Source of the DNA: an uncultured archaeon
GTDB taxonomy: Archaea; Iainarchaeota; Iainarchaeia; Iainarchaeales; Iainarchaeaceae
Assembly (NCBI GenBank): GCA_964577555.1
Contig: CAZNZM010000001.1
Coordinates: 12,684 to 76,683, forward strand
DNA: 64,000 nt
Direction of reading: 5' to 3'
The notes under the pieces are model-generated. The model had not been told where the DNA came from. It saw only the letters and a list, made by a program, of their open reading frames with translations, and did no database searches. This document shows, in pieces, positions 51,014-61,254 of the stretch (the stretch's first letter is position 1; each line of letters starts with the position of its first letter). The translations under genes were made by a program, and so were the position numbers.

Positions 51014-54000
51014 TTGAAAAACCTGTATCAAATCTTGCAAAAATTGATTTTATTGATTTTTTTAACTGTTTTGCCTAGCGTGGCCCATGCAGGAATAAGT
51101 TGTGGCGATACAAATTTTGTGTGCGTTGTTACAGGCACCAACACTACCTCGGCAAAGTTTGTGGATGGCAATACTTACGTTATAAATGGCGCAGTTATAT
51201 TTCAAAACAGCGGAGTGGATTTAAACATAGAACCGGGCGCAGTAATAAAGTTTGTTCCTAGTTCAAGTTCCTTGACAATTACGTCATCTGCAAGAATTAA
51301 TGCCAATGGCAATGCAACAAAAAGAATCGTTTTTACATCTTGCAGAGACCAAACAGTAGGAGCAAATACTTCAACCATTCCGTCATGTTCTGGTAATCCT
51401 TTGGACCAGGATTATTCTACTGCAATATCCATAAGCAGCACTGCACAAATGCTTCCTTCTGATTCGCTTAGTTTTATGAGCATAAAATTTGCAACAACAG
51501 GGATTTCTTTGGCAAAATACATTGGAAGTATTCATGACATCAATTTCAGCAGGTTTGGAAGAAGAACTGGTTCTGGAAATGCAATAGCAATTTCAACGCA
51601 AACAGGCACTGAAATATACAATAATTCCTTTGATATAAATTCAAATAATACTAGTGGAGGAGTAAATGCAATACAAATAAGTTCTGATTACAATGGCAGT
51701 ATTCATGACAACAACTTTAATTCAAGGCTGGCATCATACGGGGTTTATGTAAGCTCAGGAAATTTTACTGGGAGTTTCCACGATAATAATGTCACAGCAC
51801 TTGCTTCGCATGGAATGGTTGTAACAACTTCCAATGATTTTAATTCTTCGATTTATAAAAACAAATTTGATATCAATGGAAACGGCGGGAATTATACAGG
51901 GGTTTATAGAAGCGGTTCTTTTTATGGGAACATATATGACAACAATTTTGACATTAAAATGAACGCCTTTGGATTTTATACTCTTGGCACGGGAAATTTT
52001 GACGCAAACATTTACCAAAATTCATTTACGGGTTTAAATTTGCCAAGAGGAATAATATTAACCAATTCAGGATATTCAAAAGCAAAAATTTATTCAAACA
52101 TATTTGACATGAATGGTTTTACAACTTCTTATGGTTATGCAATACAAATCTCTAACGATTTCAACGGAATTATAAACGACAACAATTTTCACTTGAAACA
52201 ATTCATGTATGGAATTTATCATAACGGCGCATCTTTTTACGGAAACGTTGTTGACAACAATTTCGGCTTGGACAGGGCTTATGCAATTTACCACAACTCC
52301 CCAATAATATATTACAGCGATATTAACCGAAATATTTTCTATTCGAAAACACCGAAATATGCGACTTATGTGAGAACAAATTATGGTTATTCACTTTATC
52401 AATATAGTACTGGAGGAACATTTCCAGGAAGCTTTTGTGAAAATACTTTCCAGAATTTTTTCAATAATGGGATAGTATATACCAATGGAACTTTTTCAGG
52501 GAGTTTTTGCAAAAACAAAATAACTGACGCAAATATGACAATTCCTTATTTGTTTTATGTTGGAAGCAATTTTTCTGGTTCAATAATTGACAACAATTTT
52601 TCCAATATGATTGGAAACTATACCAATGCATCATACTTTCTTTTTGGGGAGTCTTACTCTGGAGAAATAAGAAAAAACATTGTATTTGATTTTAACAATT
52701 TACTTACCACAAGCTATTTTATAAGATTGTCTGGAACTCCTACAACCGGCAACATAACAGACAATAACTTTACCAAAATAGTGGGAACCAGCAGTTTGTA
52801 TCTTATAGCATATACAGGCATTGGAACAACTTATACCAATATACAAGACAATAATATGACAAACTTTAGACTGAACGTAACACCATATTATCAATCAAGC
52901 GGAACAATGGCGGGAACCTTCAGAAGAAATAAAATCAATGACCTTAACACTCTGAACAATGCAGTAATTAACACTAGCGGGGTTTTTTCCGGCGCTGTTT
53001 ACGACAATAATTTTTCCAATTTATATAACACAAGAGTTTTTTACCAGTATTTAACCGGTTCTTTTACTGGAGATTTTAACGCAAATATTATTGACAATCT
53101 TTATTTTTCCACTGGTGGCATTGAAACCATGTCAATTGCAGGCTTTTTTTCTGGAAAGATTTATAGCAACAAAATATCAAATATTACTAATTCAAACATA
53201 ATCTATTCCACAGCAAATTTTTCAGGAAGCATATACAACAACAAGATTTCAAACATTACTGGTTCAAACGCAATTTATTCTAACGCTGCTTTTTCAGGAA
53301 ATATTTACAATAACTTGTTTGTTAAAAACAACAGCGCCGCGCATTTTATATACCATGCAAGTTCAAACGCTTTTTCCGGAAGCATTTACAATAATACATT
53401 TACAAACTTCAGAACTGGAACATCTTACGGAGTAAGAAACACAGGCAGTTTTACAGGCAATATATTAAGGAACGTTTTTACTCATGGAAGTGTTGCTCTT
53501 TCAGGAACTTTTTCAGGACAAGTAGGTTATAATGCGTTTTTTTCAATAACAACTATTGGCGGTTCGGCAAACCAACATGTTGGAGACCAAAACACCCAAA
53601 CTGGTTTTTCAAACGACCCTTTTTTGGCTGATAATAGCGACAGAAATTTCTTGTTGAACACTGACAATAATGGAGGACAAAAGCTTGTTAATACAGGAAA
53701 TATTGATTCAACCGAATTCTTCATGAAACGCACAACTTTGAGAAGCAACAAGCTTGACACAGGCATAATTGATTTGGGTTATCACTACGACCAAAATGCG
53801 TTATATGTTATAGTGCAATCGCCTAATGGCGGAGAAATAATTTCAGGAACAGAAAACATAGATTTCAACGTTGAATCCGGCTTTGGTTCAAGCAATGAAA
53901 TATTTGTTACACTTTCATATTCGCCATTCACTTCTGGCGGGACGCAAATAACGAGCAATTCTTTGAATGCATTTGTTTGTTCTTCAGGACCTGTTTATGT

Positions 54001-57000
54001 GTGTTCTTATTCTTGGGATTCTTCTGATATTACTGATGGAAATTATTACATAATTCTGTCGGCAATGTATCAGGATAATAATACAAGCGACTCGTCAGAT
54101 CAAAATTTTACTTTGCTTTCAATACCTAAATTTGCCTTGAGAACATATCTTGGTTCAAAGCCGAGAGGATTCTTTACAAAAGGGCAGGACGTGAATATAG
54201 TAGTTTATACTACTACTGCAAATCCTTTGATAAACATAATAGAAGCAAGAACGGGCAATATTTTGGTTTCAAATGCATCTATGTCACCAACATCTCCATC
54301 TTCGGACATGAATGGTTATGCTTATTCATATAAAGTTGATGGAAATGAAGGGTGGTATGATGCAAGAATTTCAGGCAAGACATTTGAACATATATTTTAT
54401 GTTACAAATGCATGGCAGAACAGGTATGTTGACAATAATGGCATAGTAGTGCCTTTCAGTATACCTGTTGATGTCACAGAACCTGGAAAAGTGCAAAGAT
54501 GGTTTGCGCCAATACAATTAAACTTGGATTTTAATTACCTGTCAAACCCAAATGGTGTTAGGGTAATAGATTATAATGGCGACACTTACGTAGAGATACC
54601 AAGCCAAACTTATGATTTGAATTATTCTGGAACTAAAGCTTCTTCAGGCAAAGTCGCTTTCATGGCTTCGTTTGATTTGGGCGAAACAAGGAATTTTTTT
54701 GCCAATTATTCAAGGCAACAAAACCCAAAAACATATTACCCTGACATGAATCTTTCTTTTATTGACTCAAATTACATTGTGGAAAATTCCTCACTGAAAG
54801 TTGAAATAGATTTGAACCTTGGAGGAAATGTCACAAGAATATTCAACAAAAAAGGGACTAACACCAACTTGGGCGGAGCCACGCCTTCGGTCCTTTCGCC
54901 TGAATCAAAATCTGGAATATATACTTATACATCATACTCTGTTTCAAATCCAAATTATTCGCTTGATGTGAATGGCGGAATATTCAGCAAAATAAGGGTT
55001 TGGGCAAGAACTGGACAAATGGATTATAACACTACTTACTACTTTTATGCTAAGCAACCTTATTATGAAACAGACATAAATTCAAAGCCTGTGAGCACGC
55101 AAAATTGGAGTTATTATTATGATGATTACAAAGTAATGGATTCGAACAAATTTTTGGTGTTCAGTTATAATTCTGGCGGTTCAGTGACAAATTACGATTT
55201 GAATAGTAATGGCTCTGGAAGTACTCTTACTTTTGGGGATGCTAATTATTGGGGTGTTTACAACCGGAATACGAGCGATGCATTTGGCACTATGTTTATT
55301 AACAGATACAGCACTACTGGAGAATCAATCAGTTCCAAATTTTATGATGAAACGGATTACGATTATTGGACAAGACAGATGTATTCAGGAATAGTAACTG
55401 AAGCTGATAGATTCAATTCAAGAATAGGACACAACCTTTTCAACCCTTGGAATCGTCTCGGTGACCTTAACTCTGACTTCATTAGCGCAAAATACGGCTT
55501 GGCAAAAAGCATTGGAACAACGCAAACCAATGATTTGAATGCGCCTGTTTTCGTTGATTGGAATTCAACTCCTTATGATGCAAACGATTCAGCTGACTTG
55601 AATGTTTGGGCTGTTATAAACGACAATTTGCAAGTTGATTATGTTGACATAAATATTTCAGGGCCTAACATAAATATACAAACAAGGCAACAATACAACG
55701 ACGCAAACATAGTTGCTTATTATGTAATTGACTCAAATACTTTAAATGCGGGCACAATAGACGTAAATTTTAGGGCAACCGACATAGCAAAAAATTCAAC
55801 AATAAAATCTTGGCAAATAAGTGTCAGTGATTTGAAAGCTCCAAAAGTTTGGAAAATTACTCTTACGCCTGACGACAACGCAAGCATAGATCCTGATTCA
55901 AACATAACGTTTGATGCAAACATCAATGAATACACTGGAGTTTCACAAGTAAAATTGTTCATAAGATATTATAACGAAACAACACAAGGATGGAGCGATT
56001 GGAATGCTATAAGTATGAATTTTTCAAGCCAGCCTTCCGATTACAATTACAATTACACTTTGACATATAACATCCCAGCAGATCTGAACAAGCATTTCCA
56101 ATACAAAATATATACAAAAGACACGCAAGGAAACGATGCCAATTCTGATACAAACAACTTTTATGCTTACATAGATTATACTTGGGGGTTAGCTCCGACA
56201 AACTTTGGAACAAAAACAGAAGCTTTGGACGCCAACATAACAATAGGAGACATAAACATAACAAATACTGGTGATGCGCCAATCACATTTTCCATAACAT
56301 CAAATTGGGATCCTGGAAAAAACGTGTTTTTCAATTTACAACCTGGATCAACTCCTTATGAAATAACAGTAAATGCTGGACAAACAGCTTCAGTAAATAC
56401 TAAAGTAACCACAAAAACCACTGAAAGGTCAGATTCATTGACAATAACTTTTACTCCAAAAATTTCATCTGCACAGCCTCAGAATGCAACAAGTTCTGGA
56501 ACCATAATAAGTTTGGCTGGCGGGCCTTTTATGTTTGTGGAAATACCTACTTACAACCAATCAGTATTGCAAGGAGACACTGGCAAAAGTTACGTTGCAA
56601 AAGTGACAAACAAAGGAAATGAAGACGCTAATAATGTGGTGCTTGCTTGGACTTTGCCGGAAGGTTGGACCATAACTTCTGGAAGTTCTTCTGTTTCAAT
56701 ATCTACTTTGGGAATAGACGAATACTTATTCAATTCAATTGTTGTAAGCATAAGCGAAAGCGCGCAATCTGGAACAGTGACATTGACTGCTACGGCAACG
56801 CCTGATGGGAACGAATTAAAAACAAGGTCCGAATCTGTTAATGTGGTGGTGGTTTCAACACAAACAAGCCAAGCACCCACATGTAGCGATGGAATTCAAA
56901 ATCATGGGGAAACCGGCATTGACTGCGGAGGCCCTTGTCCGCCATGTGGCGGGGGAGTAGTAGGAACAAGCAGTGCATCAAGCTCGTCAAGCAGTTCTGG

Positions 57001-58333
57001 CGGAGGCGGCGGTGGAAGCATTTTTACAACAGAGGAACAAGTAAGAACTTTTTTCCAAACAGTTGAAAAATTCGAACTTGTAAGGGGAAAAGACCAGGAA
57101 TTCAAAGTAAGAATAAAGAATCCTTTCCCTGACAAAGAATTGAGAAACATAACTGCTGAAGTAACAGGGTTATTGTCAAAATACTTGAACATTGAAAACC
57201 CTGAAATACCATCGCTAAAACCCGACGAAGAAAGCTTTCTAAAAGTGAAAATAGTGGCGCCAAAATACTTTGAACCTGGAAGGCACGAATTGACTTTCAC
57301 AATAAAAGGCGTATTGTCGGTAAAAAAAAGAAACTCGATTGTTGACACTCCATTTACATTCAAAACAAATGTAACTTTATTCATAAGAGACATAACAAAA
57401 AAAGAGGCTGCGGAAATAATTTCAAAAGCAAAATCAGAAATAGCTGAATTGGTTTCAATGGGTTTGAATGTTTCGGAAATGCGAAATATTCTTGAAGAGG
57501 CGGAAATAAATATAGATGCAAACGAATACGACTTGGCGGCCAACAATGCAAACACCATATTAGCATTGGGCAAAATAGCAAAGGAAGCCGTACAAGAAAT
57601 GAAAAAACTTGACGAACTAATCAGCAAAAGCGAAGAAGAAAGGATTGACATTCCAAAAACAAAAAAAATGAGGGAATTGGCAAAACTTGCGCTTGACAGG
57701 GGAGACTTCCAAAATGCGTTGGATGTGCTTAAAGAAGCTCACCTAACACACAGCCTTGAAACAAAAGGCGCTTTCAATTATGGTTATTTCATAATGCAAA
57801 ACAGCTTTGCCATATCAACAGGCGCGATTGCAGGAATACTGTTCTTTATAGTTTCACTAATAAGTTTGAAGAGATTCTCGCTTAAAAACAAAATAAAAAC
57901 ACTCAAAGCCGAAGAAAAATTGCTGATTGAACTAATAAAAGAAACCCAACATCAATGCTTTGTTGCTGGAAAAATAAGTATGAACGAGTACCAAGATGCG
58001 TTAAACCATTATGAAAAAAAATTCACGGAAGCAATAGAAAAAATGATTGAAGCTGAAAATGAACTTATAAACCAATTAAACATCAAATCAAAAAGAACAA
58101 AACTGGCTGAAGAAAGGGAAAGAATCTTAAACGAATTGAAAGAAACCCAAAAACAATACTTCAAAGAAGGGTTGATTGAAACAAGAATGTATCAGGCAAA
58201 AATTGAAAATTTGACAAAAAGGCTGAATGAAATAGAAAAAAACATAACATATGAAGAAGCTATAAGTTCAATAAGAAAAAACAGTGGTTGGTTAAGCATC
58301 TTCTGGAGGGTTTATTATAAAATCTTCAAATAA
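51014..58333 (+). CDS. Giant (2439 aa) secreted surface protein: signal peptide, about 28 degenerate beta-helix repeats, beta-sandwich/CARDB-like domains, Cys-rich knot, Ser/Gly linker, helical stalk, TM helix, cytoplasmic coiled-coil tail
   Basis: Single uninterrupted ORF. N-terminal signal peptide (LLIFLTVLPSVAHA). N/G/S/T-rich with about 25-aa GSIxDNNF-type periodicity. CARDB-like V.N.GNEDANNV.L.W.LPEGW. CSDGIQNHGETGIDCGGPCPPC. S8G6 linker. TM FAISTGAIAGILFFIVSLISL near residue 2275, then a roughly 155-aa helical tail. Confidence 0.85.
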   Translation: MKNLYQILQKLILLIFLTVLPSVAHAGISCGDTNFVCVVTGTNTTSAKFVDGNTYVINGAVIFQNSGVDLNIEPGAVIKFVPSSSSLTITSSARINANGNATKRIVFTSCRDQTVGANTSTIPSCSGNPLDQDYSTAISISSTAQMLPSDSLSFMSIKFATTGISLAKYIGSIHDINFSRFGRRTGSGNAIAISTQTGTEIYNNSFDINSNNTSGGVNAIQISSDYNGSIHDNNFNSRLASYGVYVSSGNFTGSFHDNNVTALASHGMVVTTSNDFNSSIYKNKFDINGNGGNYTGVYRSGSFYGNIYDNNFDIKMNAFGFYTLGTGNFDANIYQNSFTGLNLPRGIILTNSGYSKAKIYSNIFDMNGFTTSYGYAIQISNDFNGIINDNNFHLKQFMYGIYHNGASFYGNVVDNNFGLDRAYAIYHNSPIIYYSDINRNIFYSKTPKYATYVRTNYGYSLYQYSTGGTFPGSFCENTFQNFFNNGIVYTNGTFSGSFCKNKITDANMTIPYLFYVGSNFSGSIIDNNFSNMIGNYTNASYFLFGESYSGEIRKNIVFDFNNLLTTSYFIRLSGTPTTGNITDNNFTKIVGTSSLYLIAYTGIGTTYTNIQDNNMTNFRLNVTPYYQSSGTMAGTFRRNKINDLNTLNNAVINTSGVFSGAVYDNNFSNLYNTRVFYQYLTGSFTGDFNANIIDNLYFSTGGIETMSIAGFFSGKIYSNKISNITNSNIIYSTANFSGSIYNNKISNITGSNAIYSNAAFSGNIYNNLFVKNNSAAHFIYHASSNAFSGSIYNNTFTNFRTGTSYGVRNTGSFTGNILRNVFTHGSVALSGTFSGQVGYNAFFSITTIGGSANQHVGDQNTQTGFSNDPFLADNSDRNFLLNTDNNGGQKLVNTGNIDSTEFFMKRTTLRSNKLDTGIIDLGYHYDQNALYVIVQSPNGGEIISGTENIDFNVESGFGSSNEIFVTLSYSPFTSGGTQITSNSLNAFVCSSGPVYVCSYSWDSSDITDGNYYIILSAMYQDNNTSDSSDQNFTLLSIPKFALRTYLGSKPRGFFTKGQDVNIVVYTTTANPLINIIEARTGNILVSNASMSPTSPSSDMNGYAYSYKVDGNEGWYDARISGKTFEHIFYVTNAWQNRYVDNNGIVVPFSIPVDVTEPGKVQRWFAPIQLNLDFNYLSNPNGVRVIDYNGDTYVEIPSQTYDLNYSGTKASSGKVAFMASFDLGETRNFFANYSRQQNPKTYYPDMNLSFIDSNYIVENSSLKVEIDLNLGGNVTRIFNKKGTNTNLGGATPSVLSPESKSGIYTYTSYSVSNPNYSLDVNGGIFSKIRVWARTGQMDYNTTYYFYAKQPYYETDINSKPVSTQNWSYYYDDYKVMDSNKFLVFSYNSGGSVTNYDLNSNGSGSTLTFGDANYWGVYNRNTSDAFGTMFINRYSTTGESISSKFYDETDYDYWTRQMYSGIVTEADRFNSRIGHNLFNPWNRLGDLNSDFISAKYGLAKSIGTTQTNDLNAPVFVDWNSTPYDANDSADLNVWAVINDNLQVDYVDINISGPNINIQTRQQYNDANIVAYYVIDSNTLNAGTIDVNFRATDIAKNSTIKSWQISVSDLKAPKVWKITLTPDDNASIDPDSNITFDANINEYTGVSQVKLFIRYYNETTQGWSDWNAISMNFSSQPSDYNYNYTLTYNIPADLNKHFQYKIYTKDTQGNDANSDTNNFYAYIDYTWGLAPTNFGTKTEALDANITIGDINITNTGDAPITFSITSNWDPGKNVFFNLQPGSTPYEITVNAGQTASVNTKVTTKTTERSDSLTITFTPKISSAQPQNATSSGTIISLAGGPFMFVEIPTYNQSVLQGDTGKSYVAKVTNKGNEDANNVVLAWTLPEGWTITSGSSSVSISTLGIDEYLFNSIVVSISESAQSGTVTLTATATPDGNELKTRSESVNVVVVSTQTSQAPTCSDGIQNHGETGIDCGGPCPPCGGGVVGTSSASSSSSSSGGGGGGSIFTTEEQVRTFFQTVEKFELVRGKDQEFKVRIKNPFPDKELRNITAEVTGLLSKYLNIENPEIPSLKPDEESFLKVKIVAPKYFEPGRHELTFTIKGVLSVKKRNSIVDTPFTFKTNVTLFIRDITKKEAAEIISKAKSEIAELVSMGLNVSEMRNILEEAEINIDANEYDLAANNANTILALGKIAKEAVQEMKKLDELISKSEEERIDIPKTKKMRELAKLALDRGDFQNALDVLKEAHLTHSLETKGAFNYGYFIMQNSFAISTGAIAGILFFIVSLISLKRFSLKNKIKTLKAEEKLLIELIKETQHQCFVAGKISMNEYQDALNHYEKKFTEAIEKMIEAENELINQLNIKSKRTKLAEERERILNELKETQKQYFKEGLIETRMYQAKIENLTKRLNEIEKNITYEEAISSIRKNSGWLSIFWRVYYKIFK
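51490..53560 (+). repeat. Degenerate roughly 75-bp tandem repeats inside the giant CDS, encoding parallel beta-helix-like G(S/N)I(Y/H)DNNF units
   Basis: A repeated peptide pattern (GSIHDNNFNSR.., GSFHDNNVTA.., GNIYDNNFDIK.., ANIYQNSFTG.., GIINDNNFHLK.., GNVVDNNFGLD.., ...) is visible in translation. Confidence 0.6.
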
Positions 58334-58349: not shown

Positions 58350-59276
58350 TTGCTTTTAATAATCGCGTTTATCGCAATTCAAATACTAATCATTAACATT
58401 ATAACTGCTGAAAAAACTGAATTGCAAGACAATAATTCCGAAACGGTTCCAGATTTTAATGCAGAAGAATTGGGAATAGTAAAGTCGGCAAAACAAGAAA
58501 TCTTTAATGCTGAAAACAAAATAAGAGACATGAAAAGAAAAGGATTGCCTACAGGCAGGGCTTTAGACTTGTTGACTATAGCTAAATTAAACCTTGATTT
58601 TGCAATTGAAAAATCCAATTTGACAAAACAAAACCCTGATCTTTTCCAATACAGGGAAAAAATGAAAGACTTTAAAAAAGTAAGCGAAATGGCTTATAAA
58701 GTCAAAGACGAATTAGTGTCTCTTAGAAAAAGGATTGATGAATCAAAAAATCTTCCTCAAATAGAAAGCGTGGAAAATCTTTACAAGCAAGCCGAATCGG
58801 AGTTTTTTGACGAAAGATTTGAAAGAACAATTGATATTATTTCTGAAGCTGACAAAAAATTGGTTGAATTATCCTCCCTGCAAACAAGAATTGAAGCAAT
58901 TTATGAAGCGGCGTCAGCCAATATAATCGCGATTGCAAAAAAATATCAAACTGAAATACTGATAGGTATAATACTGCCTCTTATTATTGGAATAATTTTT
59001 AGGCAACAAATAAAAATGATCCAAATACAACAAAAAATCAAAAGCCTTGAATTGGAAAAGAAAATTTTGAACGAGGAAAAAAAGAAAGCCCAAAACAACT
59101 ACTTTGTCAAAGGTTCTATACCTGAAAATGTTTATAAAAGCAAAATGCAGGTTTATAGCGATATGGAAAGGGAGATTACAAGAGAATTAGCAGTATTAAA
59201 AGAAGAAGAGCATAAATTAAATATTAAAAAAGATAATAATAAAGGCCAAAAACTACTAATAAAAAAAGTGAAGTGA
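58350..59276 (+). CDS. Bitopic coiled-coil membrane protein, paralogous to the stalk/TM/tail module of the upstream giant protein
   Basis: N-terminal signal/TM, helical ectodomain, TM (ILIGIILPLIIGIIF) and a cytoplasmic tail containing LEKKILNEEKKKAQNNYFVKGSIPENVYKSKMQVYSDMEREI. This aligns with the giant protein's AEERERILNELKETQKQYFKEGLIETRMYQAKIENLTKRLNEI. 17-bp gap to the upstream gene. Confidence 0.5.
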   Translation: MLLIIAFIAIQILIINIITAEKTELQDNNSETVPDFNAEELGIVKSAKQEIFNAENKIRDMKRKGLPTGRALDLLTIAKLNLDFAIEKSNLTKQNPDLFQYREKMKDFKKVSEMAYKVKDELVSLRKRIDESKNLPQIESVENLYKQAESEFFDERFERTIDIISEADKKLVELSSLQTRIEAIYEAASANIIAIAKKYQTEILIGIILPLIIGIIFRQQIKMIQIQQKIKSLELEKKILNEEKKKAQNNYFVKGSIPENVYKSKMQVYSDMEREITRELAVLKEEEHKLNIKKDNNKGQKLLIKKVK

Positions 59277-60193
59277 GTATGATAGATATAAAAAAACTTT
59301 TGTTCGGCGGCAATAAAAACAATGATAAAAACGTGCAAAATAAAGCCGACAAGAAAGAAAATAATAATGTTAAAACAAATAATGCGGGAGAAAATAAGAG
59401 TGAAAATAAGCAGGAAATCGAATCAAAGCGGGAAAAATATTTTAAAACTGGAATTCCGGGCATGGATGAATTGATGACAAGAGGTATACCTTGGGGTTCT
59501 GCGGTTATAGTTGAAGGTGGTCCTGGTTCAGGAAAAACGCTTTTTTGCCTTCAAGCAGGAATGAATGCGTGCAAAAGAGGGCTTAAAGTTCTTTATATGA
59601 GTTTTGAAGAAAAGGAGGAAAGTTTGAGAGACCACATGAGAATGTTCGGGCACAACCCTGAAGAGTATGAAAAAAAAGGTTTGTTAATGATAAAAAGGTT
59701 TAATGCTCTCGATATTGCAAGAAGCGTGGAAGCTTTGTTGAGCGAAGCCAAAAAAGAATTGCTTATAGACGTGGAAGTTGTTTTGATACCCCAAAATTAC
59801 AAGCCTGATTTGGTTTTGATAGACTCTTTGACTTCTATATCCTCCGCTTTCAGTGGGGAAGAATACAGGTTCAGGATATACATGGAACAAATGTTCAGGT
59901 ATTTGGAAAAAAACAACATAACTTCATTACTAATAAGGGAAACCCCTAAACCTACCCATACTGGCACTGATGGAACTGCCGAAGGTGGAGAAGCAATAAG
60001 CTTTCTTTCAGATGGAATAATAGTTATTTACAATGTGCTTTACAGCAATGGGGAAAGAGGCAGGGCTCTTGAAATTTTTAAATTGAGAGGGGAAAACTTC
60101 AAAAGACGCTTAGTGGAACTCACAATAACAGATAAAGAAGGCATCAGGGTTTATCCTGACAAAGTAATAAAAGGAAAATATACCTTAACATAA
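59273..60193 (+). CDS. KaiC/RadA-like RecA-superfamily ATPase (COG0467) with a roughly 55-aa K/N-rich N-terminal extension
   Basis: GIPGMDELMTRGIPWGSAVIVEGGPGSGKTLFCLQ (Walker A), Walker B LVLIDSL, single RecA domain. 4-bp overlap with the upstream gene. Confidence 0.8.
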   Translation: MSMIDIKKLLFGGNKNNDKNVQNKADKKENNNVKTNNAGENKSENKQEIESKREKYFKTGIPGMDELMTRGIPWGSAVIVEGGPGSGKTLFCLQAGMNACKRGLKVLYMSFEEKEESLRDHMRMFGHNPEEYEKKGLLMIKRFNALDIARSVEALLSEAKKELLIDVEVVLIPQNYKPDLVLIDSLTSISSAFSGEEYRFRIYMEQMFRYLEKNNITSLLIRETPKPTHTGTDGTAEGGEAISFLSDGIIVIYNVLYSNGERGRALEIFKLRGENFKRRLVELTITDKEGIRVYPDKVIKGKYTLT

Positions 60194-60231
60194 AATAAAT
60201 AGGTTGCCCAAAAGGGCAAAAAATCGAATTA

Positions 60232-60495
60232 TTAGCTGTTTTGTTCGCTATTATTTTCTTGGCTGGCAAAATGTTCGTTTGCCTGTTGAAGAACCGAAAT
60301 CAACTTGGACAATTCGTTTGGCCTGAAAGATTTAAGCGATTTCCATTCTTCGCCTGATTTATATCTTTTTTCAATTGTTATTGTATTGTAAATTTCGCCA
60401 GTTTCCTTGGCAACATTTTCCCACACAGCCAAATGTATTTGGCCTGAAGAAAATTTTGCAACAGGTTTTGAACTGCTTTTTTGCTTGCTTTCCAT
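60232..60495 (-). CDS. Small hypothetical protein, possibly a PC4/YdbC-like ssDNA-binding fold
   Basis: Start taken at the MESKQ Met. The beta-beta-beta-alpha pattern (GQIHLAVWEN...EIYNTITIEKRYKSGEEWKSLKSF.PNELSKLISVL) loosely matches the PC4 C-terminal domain. Weak. Confidence 0.3.
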   Translation of the reverse strand: MESKQKSSSKPVAKFSSGQIHLAVWENVAKETGEIYNTITIEKRYKSGEEWKSLKSFRPNELSKLISVLQQANEHFASQENNSEQNS

Positions 60496-60612
60496 AAAAT
60501 TCACCCCTTGATGAAAGCAGAACCGAAGACTCGCACGAATAACTACTGGCACAAAATTTTTAAAATTTTCAAGAGTTGGTTGCCGGTAAAAAAAAGTTTA
60601 TTGTTGGAAAAA

Positions 60613-61254
60613 TTATTCGCTTGAAGCCCATGATTTTATTATTTCAAGTGATTTTATTTGTTCGTCCAAATCCTTTATTTTCGCTTCAATATCCTTTAAT
60701 TGGGCTTCCGACACGTCAATTCTGAAGTCTTGAAGAATGTTTGCGTAATTTCCTACTTTTTTGTTTTTGTAAACAAAACTTTTTTGCACTGTTTCAACAA
60801 GGTTTTTTCTGTATTCAATGTCTTCAAGAAACATTTTTACAAGCGGTTTGTATCTTGGATCTGCTGCAAGGTGAGCTGGCAAGCCTACTGCTTCAGCATC
60901 GGCCTTGTATTCTTTGTCGGTAAGCATTTTGGAGACATGCTTCCAATAAATTGGCTCGGACAATTTCAAAACATGGTGCTTCAGGTGATAGTTTTTGGCT
61001 TCGTTTAGCTTTTTTCTCCAATCGGCTTCCTTTTTCAAAAAAAGTTTTCTCCTGTTCTTTAATTCTTCTATTTGAGTTTGGATTCGCAATGGAGAAGGGT
61101 ATATCAAGCGAGGCCAAGGTTTTTTTGAAGGCAAAGCCGATATTACCCCGCCTCGTTCAAAGTATTTTTTCAATGCATTGATTCTTTCATCGTTCTTTGG
61201 AAAATCAAACCTTTTTTGGAATTCTTCAAAAGAACTTATTATATTTGATGTCAT
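60613..61254 (-). CDS. Hypothetical cytoplasmic protein with a C-terminal coiled coil
   Basis: 213-aa ORF. No recognisable family. Confidence 0.4.
   Translation of the reverse strand: MTSNIISSFEEFQKRFDFPKNDERINALKKYFERGGVISALPSKKPWPRLIYPSPLRIQTQIEELKNRRKLFLKKEADWRKKLNEAKNYHLKHHVLKLSEPIYWKHVSKMLTDKEYKADAEAVGLPAHLAADPRYKPLVKMFLEDIEYRKNLVETVQKSFVYKNKKVGNYANILQDFRIDVSEAQLKDIEAKIKDLDEQIKSLEIIKSWASSE

Follow-up and report, generated by a model that had tools for sequence, protein, structure and literature searches.

Here we describe a KaiC-family ATPase gene, and the two membrane-protein genes that precede it, in a 64,000-nt stretch of contig CAZNZM010000001.1 from an uncultured archaeon (assembly GCA_964577555.1; hereafter the window, whose numbering is used throughout). 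The window is archaeal and AT-rich (35.6% G+C), and its nearest public relatives are 'Candidatus Iainarchaeum'/Diapherotrites metagenome-assembled genomes (MAGs). The three genes, which we refer to as the giant, the partner and the ATPase, follow one another on the forward strand:

51014..58333 (+): giant surface protein gene, 2439 aa (open reading frame (ORF) listing), with a Pfam match to PF10633 (E = 1e-12)
58350..59276 (+): partner membrane protein gene, 308 aa (ORF listing)
59279..60193 (+): KaiC-family single-domain ATPase gene, 304 aa from the ATG at 59279; the alternative GTG at 59273 gives 306 aa

The ATPase and its two membrane-protein neighbours

The preliminary description of the locus had proposed a single-domain KaiC homologue, and this was borne out. 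The ATPase matched the Pfam family 'KaiC' (PF06745) over profile positions 2–230 of 231 (E = 9.3e-47; 159.8 bits against a cut-off of 26.6), and its catalytic set is intact. In the AlphaFold2 model the protein adopts a RecA-like α/β fold, with a predicted local distance difference test (pLDDT) score mostly above 90 in the core. PH0284 (2dr3) was the top Foldseek match, followed by KaiC chains, including CI-only entries, at E-values of 1e-17 to 4e-19. The features of the domain are as follows, with residues of the domain and motifs counted in the 306-aa numbering (GTG start):

59444..60163 (+): KaiC/RecA-like ATPase domain, residues 58–297 (PF06745)
59516..59539 (+): Walker A motif GGPGSGKT, residues 82–89, read from the sequence
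59606..59611 (+): catalytic glutamate pair E112–E113 (MSFEE), aligned with the 'EE' motif of both KaiC domains
59822..59824 (+): Walker B aspartate D184 (LVLIDSL), from the HMMER alignment to KaiC chains and the alignment of 39 homologues
59999..60001 (+): S243, aligned with the KaiC CII phosphosite S431 ('aisflsdg' versus 'histitdt')
60080..60088 (+): Lys/Arg finger K270-L-R272 (KLRG), equivalent to the K-x-R-G of KaiC

Motif conservation was read from an alignment of 39 homologues from several DPANN phyla, 56–89% identical to the window protein. The Walker A residues G82–G85, G87 and K88 were unchanged across this set, and E112/E113, D184 and K270/R272/G273 were all invariant. HMMER alignments placed the Walker A motif, the glutamate pair, the Walker B motif and the K-x-R-G finger on the corresponding motifs of both KaiC domains. 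With every catalytic residue of an active KaiC domain kept, the window ATPase is apparently active. The Ser/Thr phosphosites, which had been put forward as a check, gave a divided answer. The S431 equivalent, S243, was invariant, as was F244, which takes the place of T432; the position equivalent to T426 held G, V, T or A. With S431 kept, T432 replaced by Phe and T426 variable, the cyanobacterial dual phosphosite is therefore not conserved.

Two further regions set the family apart. Residues 141–166 (KRFNALDIARSVEALLSEAKKELLI, 26 aa; window 59693–59770) are nearly invariant across DPANN phyla, whereas the Walker B strand after them varies more, and this points to a surface kept for an interaction; the adjoining loop, residues 162–179, was modelled by AlphaFold2 with low confidence. 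The C-terminal G-x-Y-x-L-T is also nearly invariant among homologues. The proteins that share these two features are annotated as Diapherotrites, Aenigmatarchaeota, Woesearchaeota, Nanoarchaeota and Nanohaloarchaeota, and by this alignment the family is unusually constrained for such fast-evolving genomes.

Profiles for named KaiC-type and RecA-type subfamilies were all rejected. The circadian KaiC models NF006799 and TIGR02655 scored 105.5 against a cut-off of 408 and 59.3 against 546, and the window protein has a single domain of ~250 aa, not two in tandem. The ArlH/FlaH models NF052589, NF004723 and NF006320 scored 35.4 against 215, 54.8 against 194 and 23.4 against 215. Also below their cut-offs were TIGR03877 (thermo_KaiC_1, 86.9 versus 307), TIGR03880 (KaiC_arch_3, 83.3 versus 249), TIGR03881 (KaiC_arch_4, 75.5 versus 248) and TIGR03878 (thermo_KaiC_2, 45.3 versus 232), as were the recombinases RadB (27.7 versus 172) and RadA (18.9 versus 259). 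Among the PADLOC defence-system models, the ATPase gave weak P-loop-level matches only (mad8, E = 1.8e-4; GajB, E = 5.5e-3), and the partner gave none. Judged by these scores and by the alignment of homologues, the window ATPase is a KaiC-family member outside all named subfamilies and belongs to a distinct, tightly conserved DPANN clade.

An identical 304-aa protein, starting at ATG 59279, is present in public collections, where the JGI label is 'circadian clock protein KaiC'; the partner, also present there in identical form, is a 'hypothetical protein'. Among the Pfam-annotated genes within 10 kb in two relatives (L004 and L001), and among the scanned window neighbours, we found no member of the KaiB, KaiA or thioredoxin-like families. 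We regard the circadian label as an over-annotation, misleading for this ATPase, because the protein has a single domain, the T432 and T426 equivalents are not kept, kaiA and kaiB were not found and the equivalog scores fall below their cut-offs.

The ORF listing of the window gives the gene as 59273..60193 (+), with a GTG start and 306 aa. The homologues P0001 and P0003 start with M-[IV]-D-[IL]-x-K, matching the ATG at 59279, 2 nt past the partner stop codon (TGA, 59274–59276). Because the N-termini of these nearest homologues correspond to ATG 59279, the gene most likely starts there; a start at GTG 59273 would make a GTGA overlap. Of the ATGA-type translational coupling in the preliminary description, the tight coupling thus stands, and the literal overlap does not in the window, where the junction is a 2-nt gap or GTGA. 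A literal ATGA overlap between the partner and ATPase genes is found in the closest relative, L004.

The two upstream genes encode related membrane proteins, in which we distinguish the following features:

57350..58018 (+): anchor module in the giant, residues 2113–2335 (partner-family hidden Markov model (HMM), independent E-value (iE) 2.3e-21)
58067..58273 (+): second tail motif of the giant, residues 2352–2420 (iE 2.8e-06, HMM positions 213–282)
59067..59219 (+): cytoplasmic tail motif of the partner, residues 240–290, the best-conserved segment of the partner family

The giant runs from a signal-peptide-like N-terminus through a repeat-rich ectodomain, an NPCBM_assoc/DUF11 Ig-like domain, a Cys-rich segment and a Ser/Gly linker to an anchor module, which consists of a helical ecto-stalk, a transmembrane (TM) helix and a first cytoplasmic tail motif. 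Its first ~800 residues hold long 'NNxF/IYDNNF'-type repeats, the Cys-rich segment reads CSDGIQNHGETGIDCGGPCPPC and the linker is poly-Ser/Gly. Syntenic giants in L004 and L005 measure 2415–2723 aa and carry NPCBM_assoc or Laminin_G_3, and across loci the giants vary from ~1100 to more than 3000 aa, with NPCBM_assoc, LamG, DUF2341 and FG-GAP domains. Their ends are uniform: all 23 non-redundant neighbouring giant ORFs finish with the anchor module and a second tail motif.

The partner was modelled by AlphaFold2 as an all-α protein (pLDDT 92.5). A hydrophobic helix at residues 2–18, either a signal peptide or an anchor, precedes an all-α ectodomain of five helices (~42–198), a TM helix (~200–216) and a cytoplasmic helical hairpin (218–307). 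It matched no Pfam or NCBIfam family, and comparison of its fold with the PDB returned nothing beyond generic helical hairpins. The giant's C-terminal ~230 residues are paralogous to the partner (BLASTP, 26% identity, E = 1e-12). An exhaustive profile search returned at least 1176 representatives of the partner family at 50% identity (E ≤ 1e-3), 490 of them at E ≤ 1e-10; a word-indexed search recovered only 5 relatives. Most members have 270–350 aa; there are also giant ones, and others in which the module is N-terminal.

Conservation in the partner is greatest in the cytoplasmic tail. In the 44 partner sequences from which the family HMM was built, the tail carries 2.3–2.9 bits per column, against 1.3–2.2 in most of the ectodomain. 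The tail motif has the consensus LIKK.Q..YF..G..SE..Y.I..KKF.E.IRDI.RQIPLL.EEL; among 60 sequences, Q248 and F252 are invariant and Y251, E259, Y262, R274 and E285 are at least 90% conserved. A resemblance of part of it (YF..G.I....Y..K) to SHOCT was rejected, as neither isolated tails nor whole proteins gave a Pfam match at E-values up to 10. Because partner constraint peaks in the cytoplasmic tail, it implies, at the level of sequence, a conserved cytoplasmic ligand.

Gene neighbourhood across DPANN archaea

Loci were assembled from annotated contigs and from 80 hits of a metagenome scan with an alignment query, ORFs were called, and partners were identified by jackhmmer seeded on the window partner; 84 loci were non-redundant. 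A scan of genome contigs with the single ATPase protein as query had returned only 5 loci.

The trio of giant, partner and ATPase was found in L001–L006. L001–L004 are close relatives of the window, and in the 68%-identical relative (L005/L006) the trio is kept while the remaining neighbours are unrelated. A partner-family gene lies directly upstream on the same strand in 41 of the 54 non-redundant loci with at least 1 kb of upstream sequence, and a partner adjoins the ATPase orthologue in 32 of 38 with flank on both sides. The proposed coupling to surface- and membrane-protein genes is thus upheld, and the close relatives L001–L004 and L008 all keep the ATPase beside giant and partner, not in isolation.

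The arrangement itself is not fixed. We found the orders giant–ATPase–partner (L010) and ATPase–giant–partner (L058, L059), a convergent arrangement (L064) and partners on both sides (L072, L080). Since linkage persists despite permuted order, selection would act on the linkage, not on an inherited order. The association was also recovered in reverse: two partner-family proteins, P0159 and P0183, picked for their unusual architecture (N-terminal module) blind to their neighbours, each adjoin a PF06745 gene. In addition, giant and complete partner are fused in one ORF in L088 (1–6198), L093 (3947–9946) and L094 (2–9082), where the module and second tail motif are followed by a full partner copy (HMM positions 1–285, iE ~1e-89 to 1e-90). 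Across the same 42 loci, median identity to the window was 67% for the ATPase core versus 29% for the partner.

Several partner-less loci hold another large secreted ORF nearby. At two loci with no adjacent partner, L036 (568–1675) and L050 (153–1363), two or three small genes precede the ATPase orthologue, and the N-termini of their products resemble the signal sequences of archaeal type IV pilins (MKNKKAAEMTIGTIVVIILAIIVLVV is one). The nearest non-DPANN relative that we found is a 430-aa protein of Methanosarcinales (44% identity), whose gene ends a chemotaxis-type operon (L011, 5076–8249) and is followed by two more single-domain KaiC-like genes.

Downstream of the ATPase gene, and convergent to it, lie two conserved hypothetical genes, 60232–60552 (−) and 60613–61254 (−), encoding 106 and 213 aa, with no match in Pfam or NCBIfam. 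L004 has the pair in synteny, at 87 and 213 aa, and L001 has the longer of the two in synteny as well. A GC-rich hairpin, TTGCCC-AAAA-GGGCAA (60204–60219), lies between the convergent gene ends. Other neighbouring window genes encode NAC and an FKBP26-type isomerase (Pfam scan). Scanning for bacterial-type promoters and terminators gave counts equal to shuffled expectation; bacterial models are uninformative for an archaeon.

Proposed role and alternative explanations

The near-constant place of the ATPase beside giant and partner leads us to propose that the three probably form one uncharacterised DPANN cell-envelope device. More specifically, and more tentatively, the ATPase may be the cytoplasmic component of a conserved three-gene cell-envelope module, acting as a nucleotide-dependent ring on surface-protein tails, a reading to which we assign a probability of about 0.45. 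The giant would be a lineage-variable secreted protein, adhesin- or S-layer-like, held by a C-terminal stalk–TM–tail anchor with two copies of the motif, and the partner a protein of ~300 aa made of the anchor module alone, with one tail motif. By analogy with PH0284 and KaiC, the ATPase would form a hexameric ring under the membrane and bind the helical-hairpin tails, two motifs coming from the giant and one from the partner. ATP binding and hydrolysis, possibly with autophosphorylation of S243, would then serve as a switch, either relaying to the cytoplasm what state the surface protein is in (touching a host or substrate, for example) or, in the opposite direction, setting how the surface complex is assembled.

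Several points weigh against this proposal. The hexamer, the ATPase activity and the phosphorylation are all carried over from homology. No adjacent partner is present in 6 of the 38 informative loci (~16%: L036, L044, L046, L050, L060 and L069), nor, under looser flank criteria, in L075 and L037. Neither an ATPase–partner nor an ATPase–giant fusion occurs among 120 homologues and 92 loci, so that physical contact between the ATPase and a membrane protein is deduced from gene context. Finally, the only KaiC-domain gene reported for Nanoarchaeum equitans, NEQ174, which is a possible orthologue, has unrelated neighbours.

The main rival to a switch is a structural or assembly role, in which the ATPase would be a near-stoichiometric, ATP-driven envelope scaffold that organises, inserts, extracts or recycles giant and partner. 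The same synteny and the giant–partner fusions fit such a role equally well, a large protein paired with a small one that provides stalk and anchor is reminiscent of SlaA and SlaB in Sulfolobales S-layers, and ATPase identities of 56–89% across phyla suit core machinery better than an accessory regulator. Set against this, the variable size and domains of the giants look more adhesin-like than lattice-like, and the characterised KaiC-family proteins are, to our knowledge, regulators or switches, not translocases. N. equitans bears on both sides of the question. In the proteome of that organism, NEQ174 (arCOG01171, 256 aa) ranks third in abundance, after a histone and the S-layer protein (PMC3149612), and such abundance next to an S-layer protein would favour a structural role if NEQ174 is an orthologue; its neighbours, however, are unrelated, and orthology to the window family is only possible. 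Were it an orthologue, the ATPase could instead be a stoichiometric ATP-dependent layer under the envelope. On balance we find a purely structural or assembly role doubtful.

A second alternative takes the adjacency to be co-expression and nothing else, the ATPase being a general KaiC signalling or housekeeping protein (cell cycle, stress or a RadB-like DNA function). This would agree with the ~16% of informative loci that lack the partner, with the lack of ATPase–membrane-protein fusions and with the place of the Methanosarcinales relative in a chemotaxis operon; the ATPase is also much more conserved than its neighbours, as expected of a protein with conserved cytoplasmic clients. Mere co-expression is nonetheless improbable, as the linkage holds through at least five gene orders and across phyla with differing other neighbours, is also seen when starting from the partner family, and is accompanied by a partner whose strongest constraint falls on the cytoplasmic tail.

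A third explanation, taken from the preliminary description, gives the key role to the N-terminal extension of the ATPase, a functional tether that would reach the membrane-protein tails and couple the ATPase to them:

59279..59434 (+): N-terminal extension, 52 aa, comprising the hydrophobic patch MIDIKKLLFGG and a K/N/E-rich disordered linker

That the extension is Lys/Asn-rich and disordered was confirmed. The string NKNNDKNVQNKADKKENNNVKTNNAGENKSENK precedes TGIPGMDEL, and the 52 aa contain 21% K, 23% N and 12% E. Their K+N+E fraction of 0.56 compares with 0.22 in a 12,471-aa proxy proteome of the window and was reached by none of its 12,419 segments of 52 aa. AlphaFold2 gave residues 12–51 a pLDDT below 50 and placed a short helix at residues 7–10.

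The extension is thus real, disordered and long enough for a flexible linker, as a tether would have to be, and its first ~11 residues are conserved in P0001 and P0003. The nearest relatives keep this opening (MIDLKKILFGL, MVDIGKLLFGK), and their linkers drift freely. Across 120 homologues, however, the median extension was 18 aa, the shortest 0 aa and the longest 158 aa, and in most syntenic orthologues the extension is almost absent, many having fewer than 15 aa. In L002, whose core is 88–90% identical and whose synteny is intact, in-frame stops replace the extension and the gene begins just before the KYFKT block. Because L002 keeps core and synteny without it, the extension is dispensable for the module. 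A degenerate K/N-rich in-frame stretch with two stop codons, at 2656–2810 of the same locus, is an apparent remnant of the lost extension.

Long extensions, if anything, were commoner where no partner adjoins the ATPase (median 189 aa versus 16.5 aa with a partner; Mann–Whitney p = 0.008, n = 5 versus 32, with ORF-based starts). In the partner-less loci L037, L046 and L075, a G-hydrophobic-F patch stands at the start of extensions of 189–222 aa. Most long extensions begin with a short hydrophobic patch (KKGLFSKLFKRK, IFTSIFG): in 17 of 20, the strongest hydrophobic cluster lies no further in than residue 25, and a motif defined post hoc matched 12 of 37, against a mean of 1 in shuffles. For the window extension itself, the hydrophobic cluster had P = 0.05 against shuffles. 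Unbiased tests across the family were not significant (Fisher p = 0.15 for clustering, 0.91 for hydrophobic moment).

A tether is therefore highly improbable, and as a requirement it is already largely refuted. We read the extension as a lineage-specific, dispensable disordered linker that reflects ordinary low-complexity drift in an AT-rich genome. Its one conserved feature, the hydrophobic N-terminal patch, may add affinity for the membrane or for the partner. In this, KKGLFSKLFKRK and MIDIKKLLFGG resemble KGFLKRLFGG, the C-terminal end of Escherichia coli MinD, and so recall targeting of the MinD/FtsA type. The targeting helix is C-terminal there, whereas the patch here is N-terminal and present in a minority of orthologues; with the motif enrichment being post hoc and the unbiased tests not significant, a MinD-like membrane-targeting helix is a lead only. 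Of the preliminary description as a whole, the active-site-complete KaiC protein and the gene coupling stand and the tether does not.

Least likely of all is that the ATPase regulates a filament system (a type IV pilus or one of the archaellum type) in the manner of ArlH and its large neighbours are unrelated surface proteins: archaeal type IV pilus loci often have KaiC-family ATPases (arCOG01171, arCOG01174 and arCOG01175) associated with them (PMC4858521), kaiC is also present within the pilus clusters of nanohaloarchaeal MAGs (PMC9563170) and pilin-like genes precede the orthologue in L036 and L050, but such a context was seen in only 2 of 84 loci, the ArlH/FlaH models scored below their cut-offs, no ArlI, ArlJ, TadC or prepilin peptidase was found within 10 kb in L004, L001, L005, L092, L093 or L094, and the neighbourhood counts in hand argue against it.

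The main interest of the locus accordingly lies in the conserved module around the ATPase gene, not in the K/N-rich tail. With its three-gene module present in several DPANN phyla, the locus is a concrete candidate, open to testing, for a link that joins the cell surface to the cytoplasm. The DPANN way of life is attachment to other cells, and how these archaea sense and control it is a standing question. Whether the ATPase acts as a switch or as a layer under the envelope, either role, if true, would mean KaiC-based sensing or control of attachment in attachment-dependent organisms.

Relation to known KaiC-type systems

The ATPase family, the idea of a KaiC-type hub and giant DPANN surface proteins with ATPases (SPEARE) are already known; the new part is the client module, which has no Pfam family or structural relative and appears undescribed. 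No description of a module of giant, partner and KaiC-type ATPase was found in the searchable literature, although it may have been mentioned earlier. For one branch of the archaeal KaiC 'signalling hub' family, most of whose partners are unknown, the locus thereby supplies a specific client. The fullest form of the proposal, a previously undescribed DPANN device in which a fast-evolving giant adhesin and a paralogous anchor offer three copies of a tail motif to a ring of the highly conserved KaiC-type ATPase that reads or sets the surface state, host contact for instance, is rather unlikely to hold in every part.

Cyanobacterial KaiC belongs to the same Pfam family as the window ATPase; the Walker A and B motifs, the glutamate pair and the finger align with those of both CI and CII, and S243 corresponds to S431. 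KaiC has two domains, whereas the window ATPase has one, in which the T432 equivalent is an invariant Phe. Closer in architecture is PH0284 of P. horikoshii (PDB 2DR3), a single RecA-like domain of ~250 aa that was matched by structure (Foldseek E = 4e-19, TM-score 0.81 on the target) and by sequence (E = 2e-26) and was deposited with six chains (A–F). PH0186 and SSO2452 are related single-domain archaeal ATPases of the KaiC/RecA superfamily. Identity to these solved proteins is only ~30%, and they have no known membrane partner; compared with PH0284, the window family has its own conserved helix at ~141–166 (KRFNALDIARSVEALLSEAKKELLI), the G-x-Y-x-L-T end and the neighbourhood of giant and partner.

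The best functional analogy for an ATPase ring on helical membrane-protein tails is the ArlH–ArlX pair of the crenarchaeal archaellum. ArlX crosses the membrane once, and the KaiC-like ArlH attaches to its cytosolic domain; the nucleotide state of ArlH, together with its autophosphorylation, sets its oligomeric state (PMC8978795). ArlH does not hydrolyse ATP, whereas the window ATPase keeps both catalytic glutamates and has no arl operon nearby; unlike ArlX, the window partner carries a large ectodomain, and the anchor region of a giant surface protein is its paralogue. The parallel with archaellum regulation drawn in the preliminary description therefore survives as an analogy and not as an identity, the ArlH score being 35 bits against a cut-off of 215 with no arl or pilus genes within 10 kb in L004.

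Finally, the SPEARE-type giant surface proteins of Nanohaloarchaeota are coupled genetically to VirB4/TraG-like ATPases (PMC10266531), so that in both systems a giant membrane-anchored DPANN surface protein is linked to a cytoplasmic P-loop ATPase. The SPEARE ATPase is of the FtsK/HerA–VirB4 type, whereas that of the window is of the RecA/KaiC type, and the anchor modules differ. The SPEARE giants measure 8900–9400 aa, against 1100–3500 aa here, and a separate paralogous partner is found only in the module described here.

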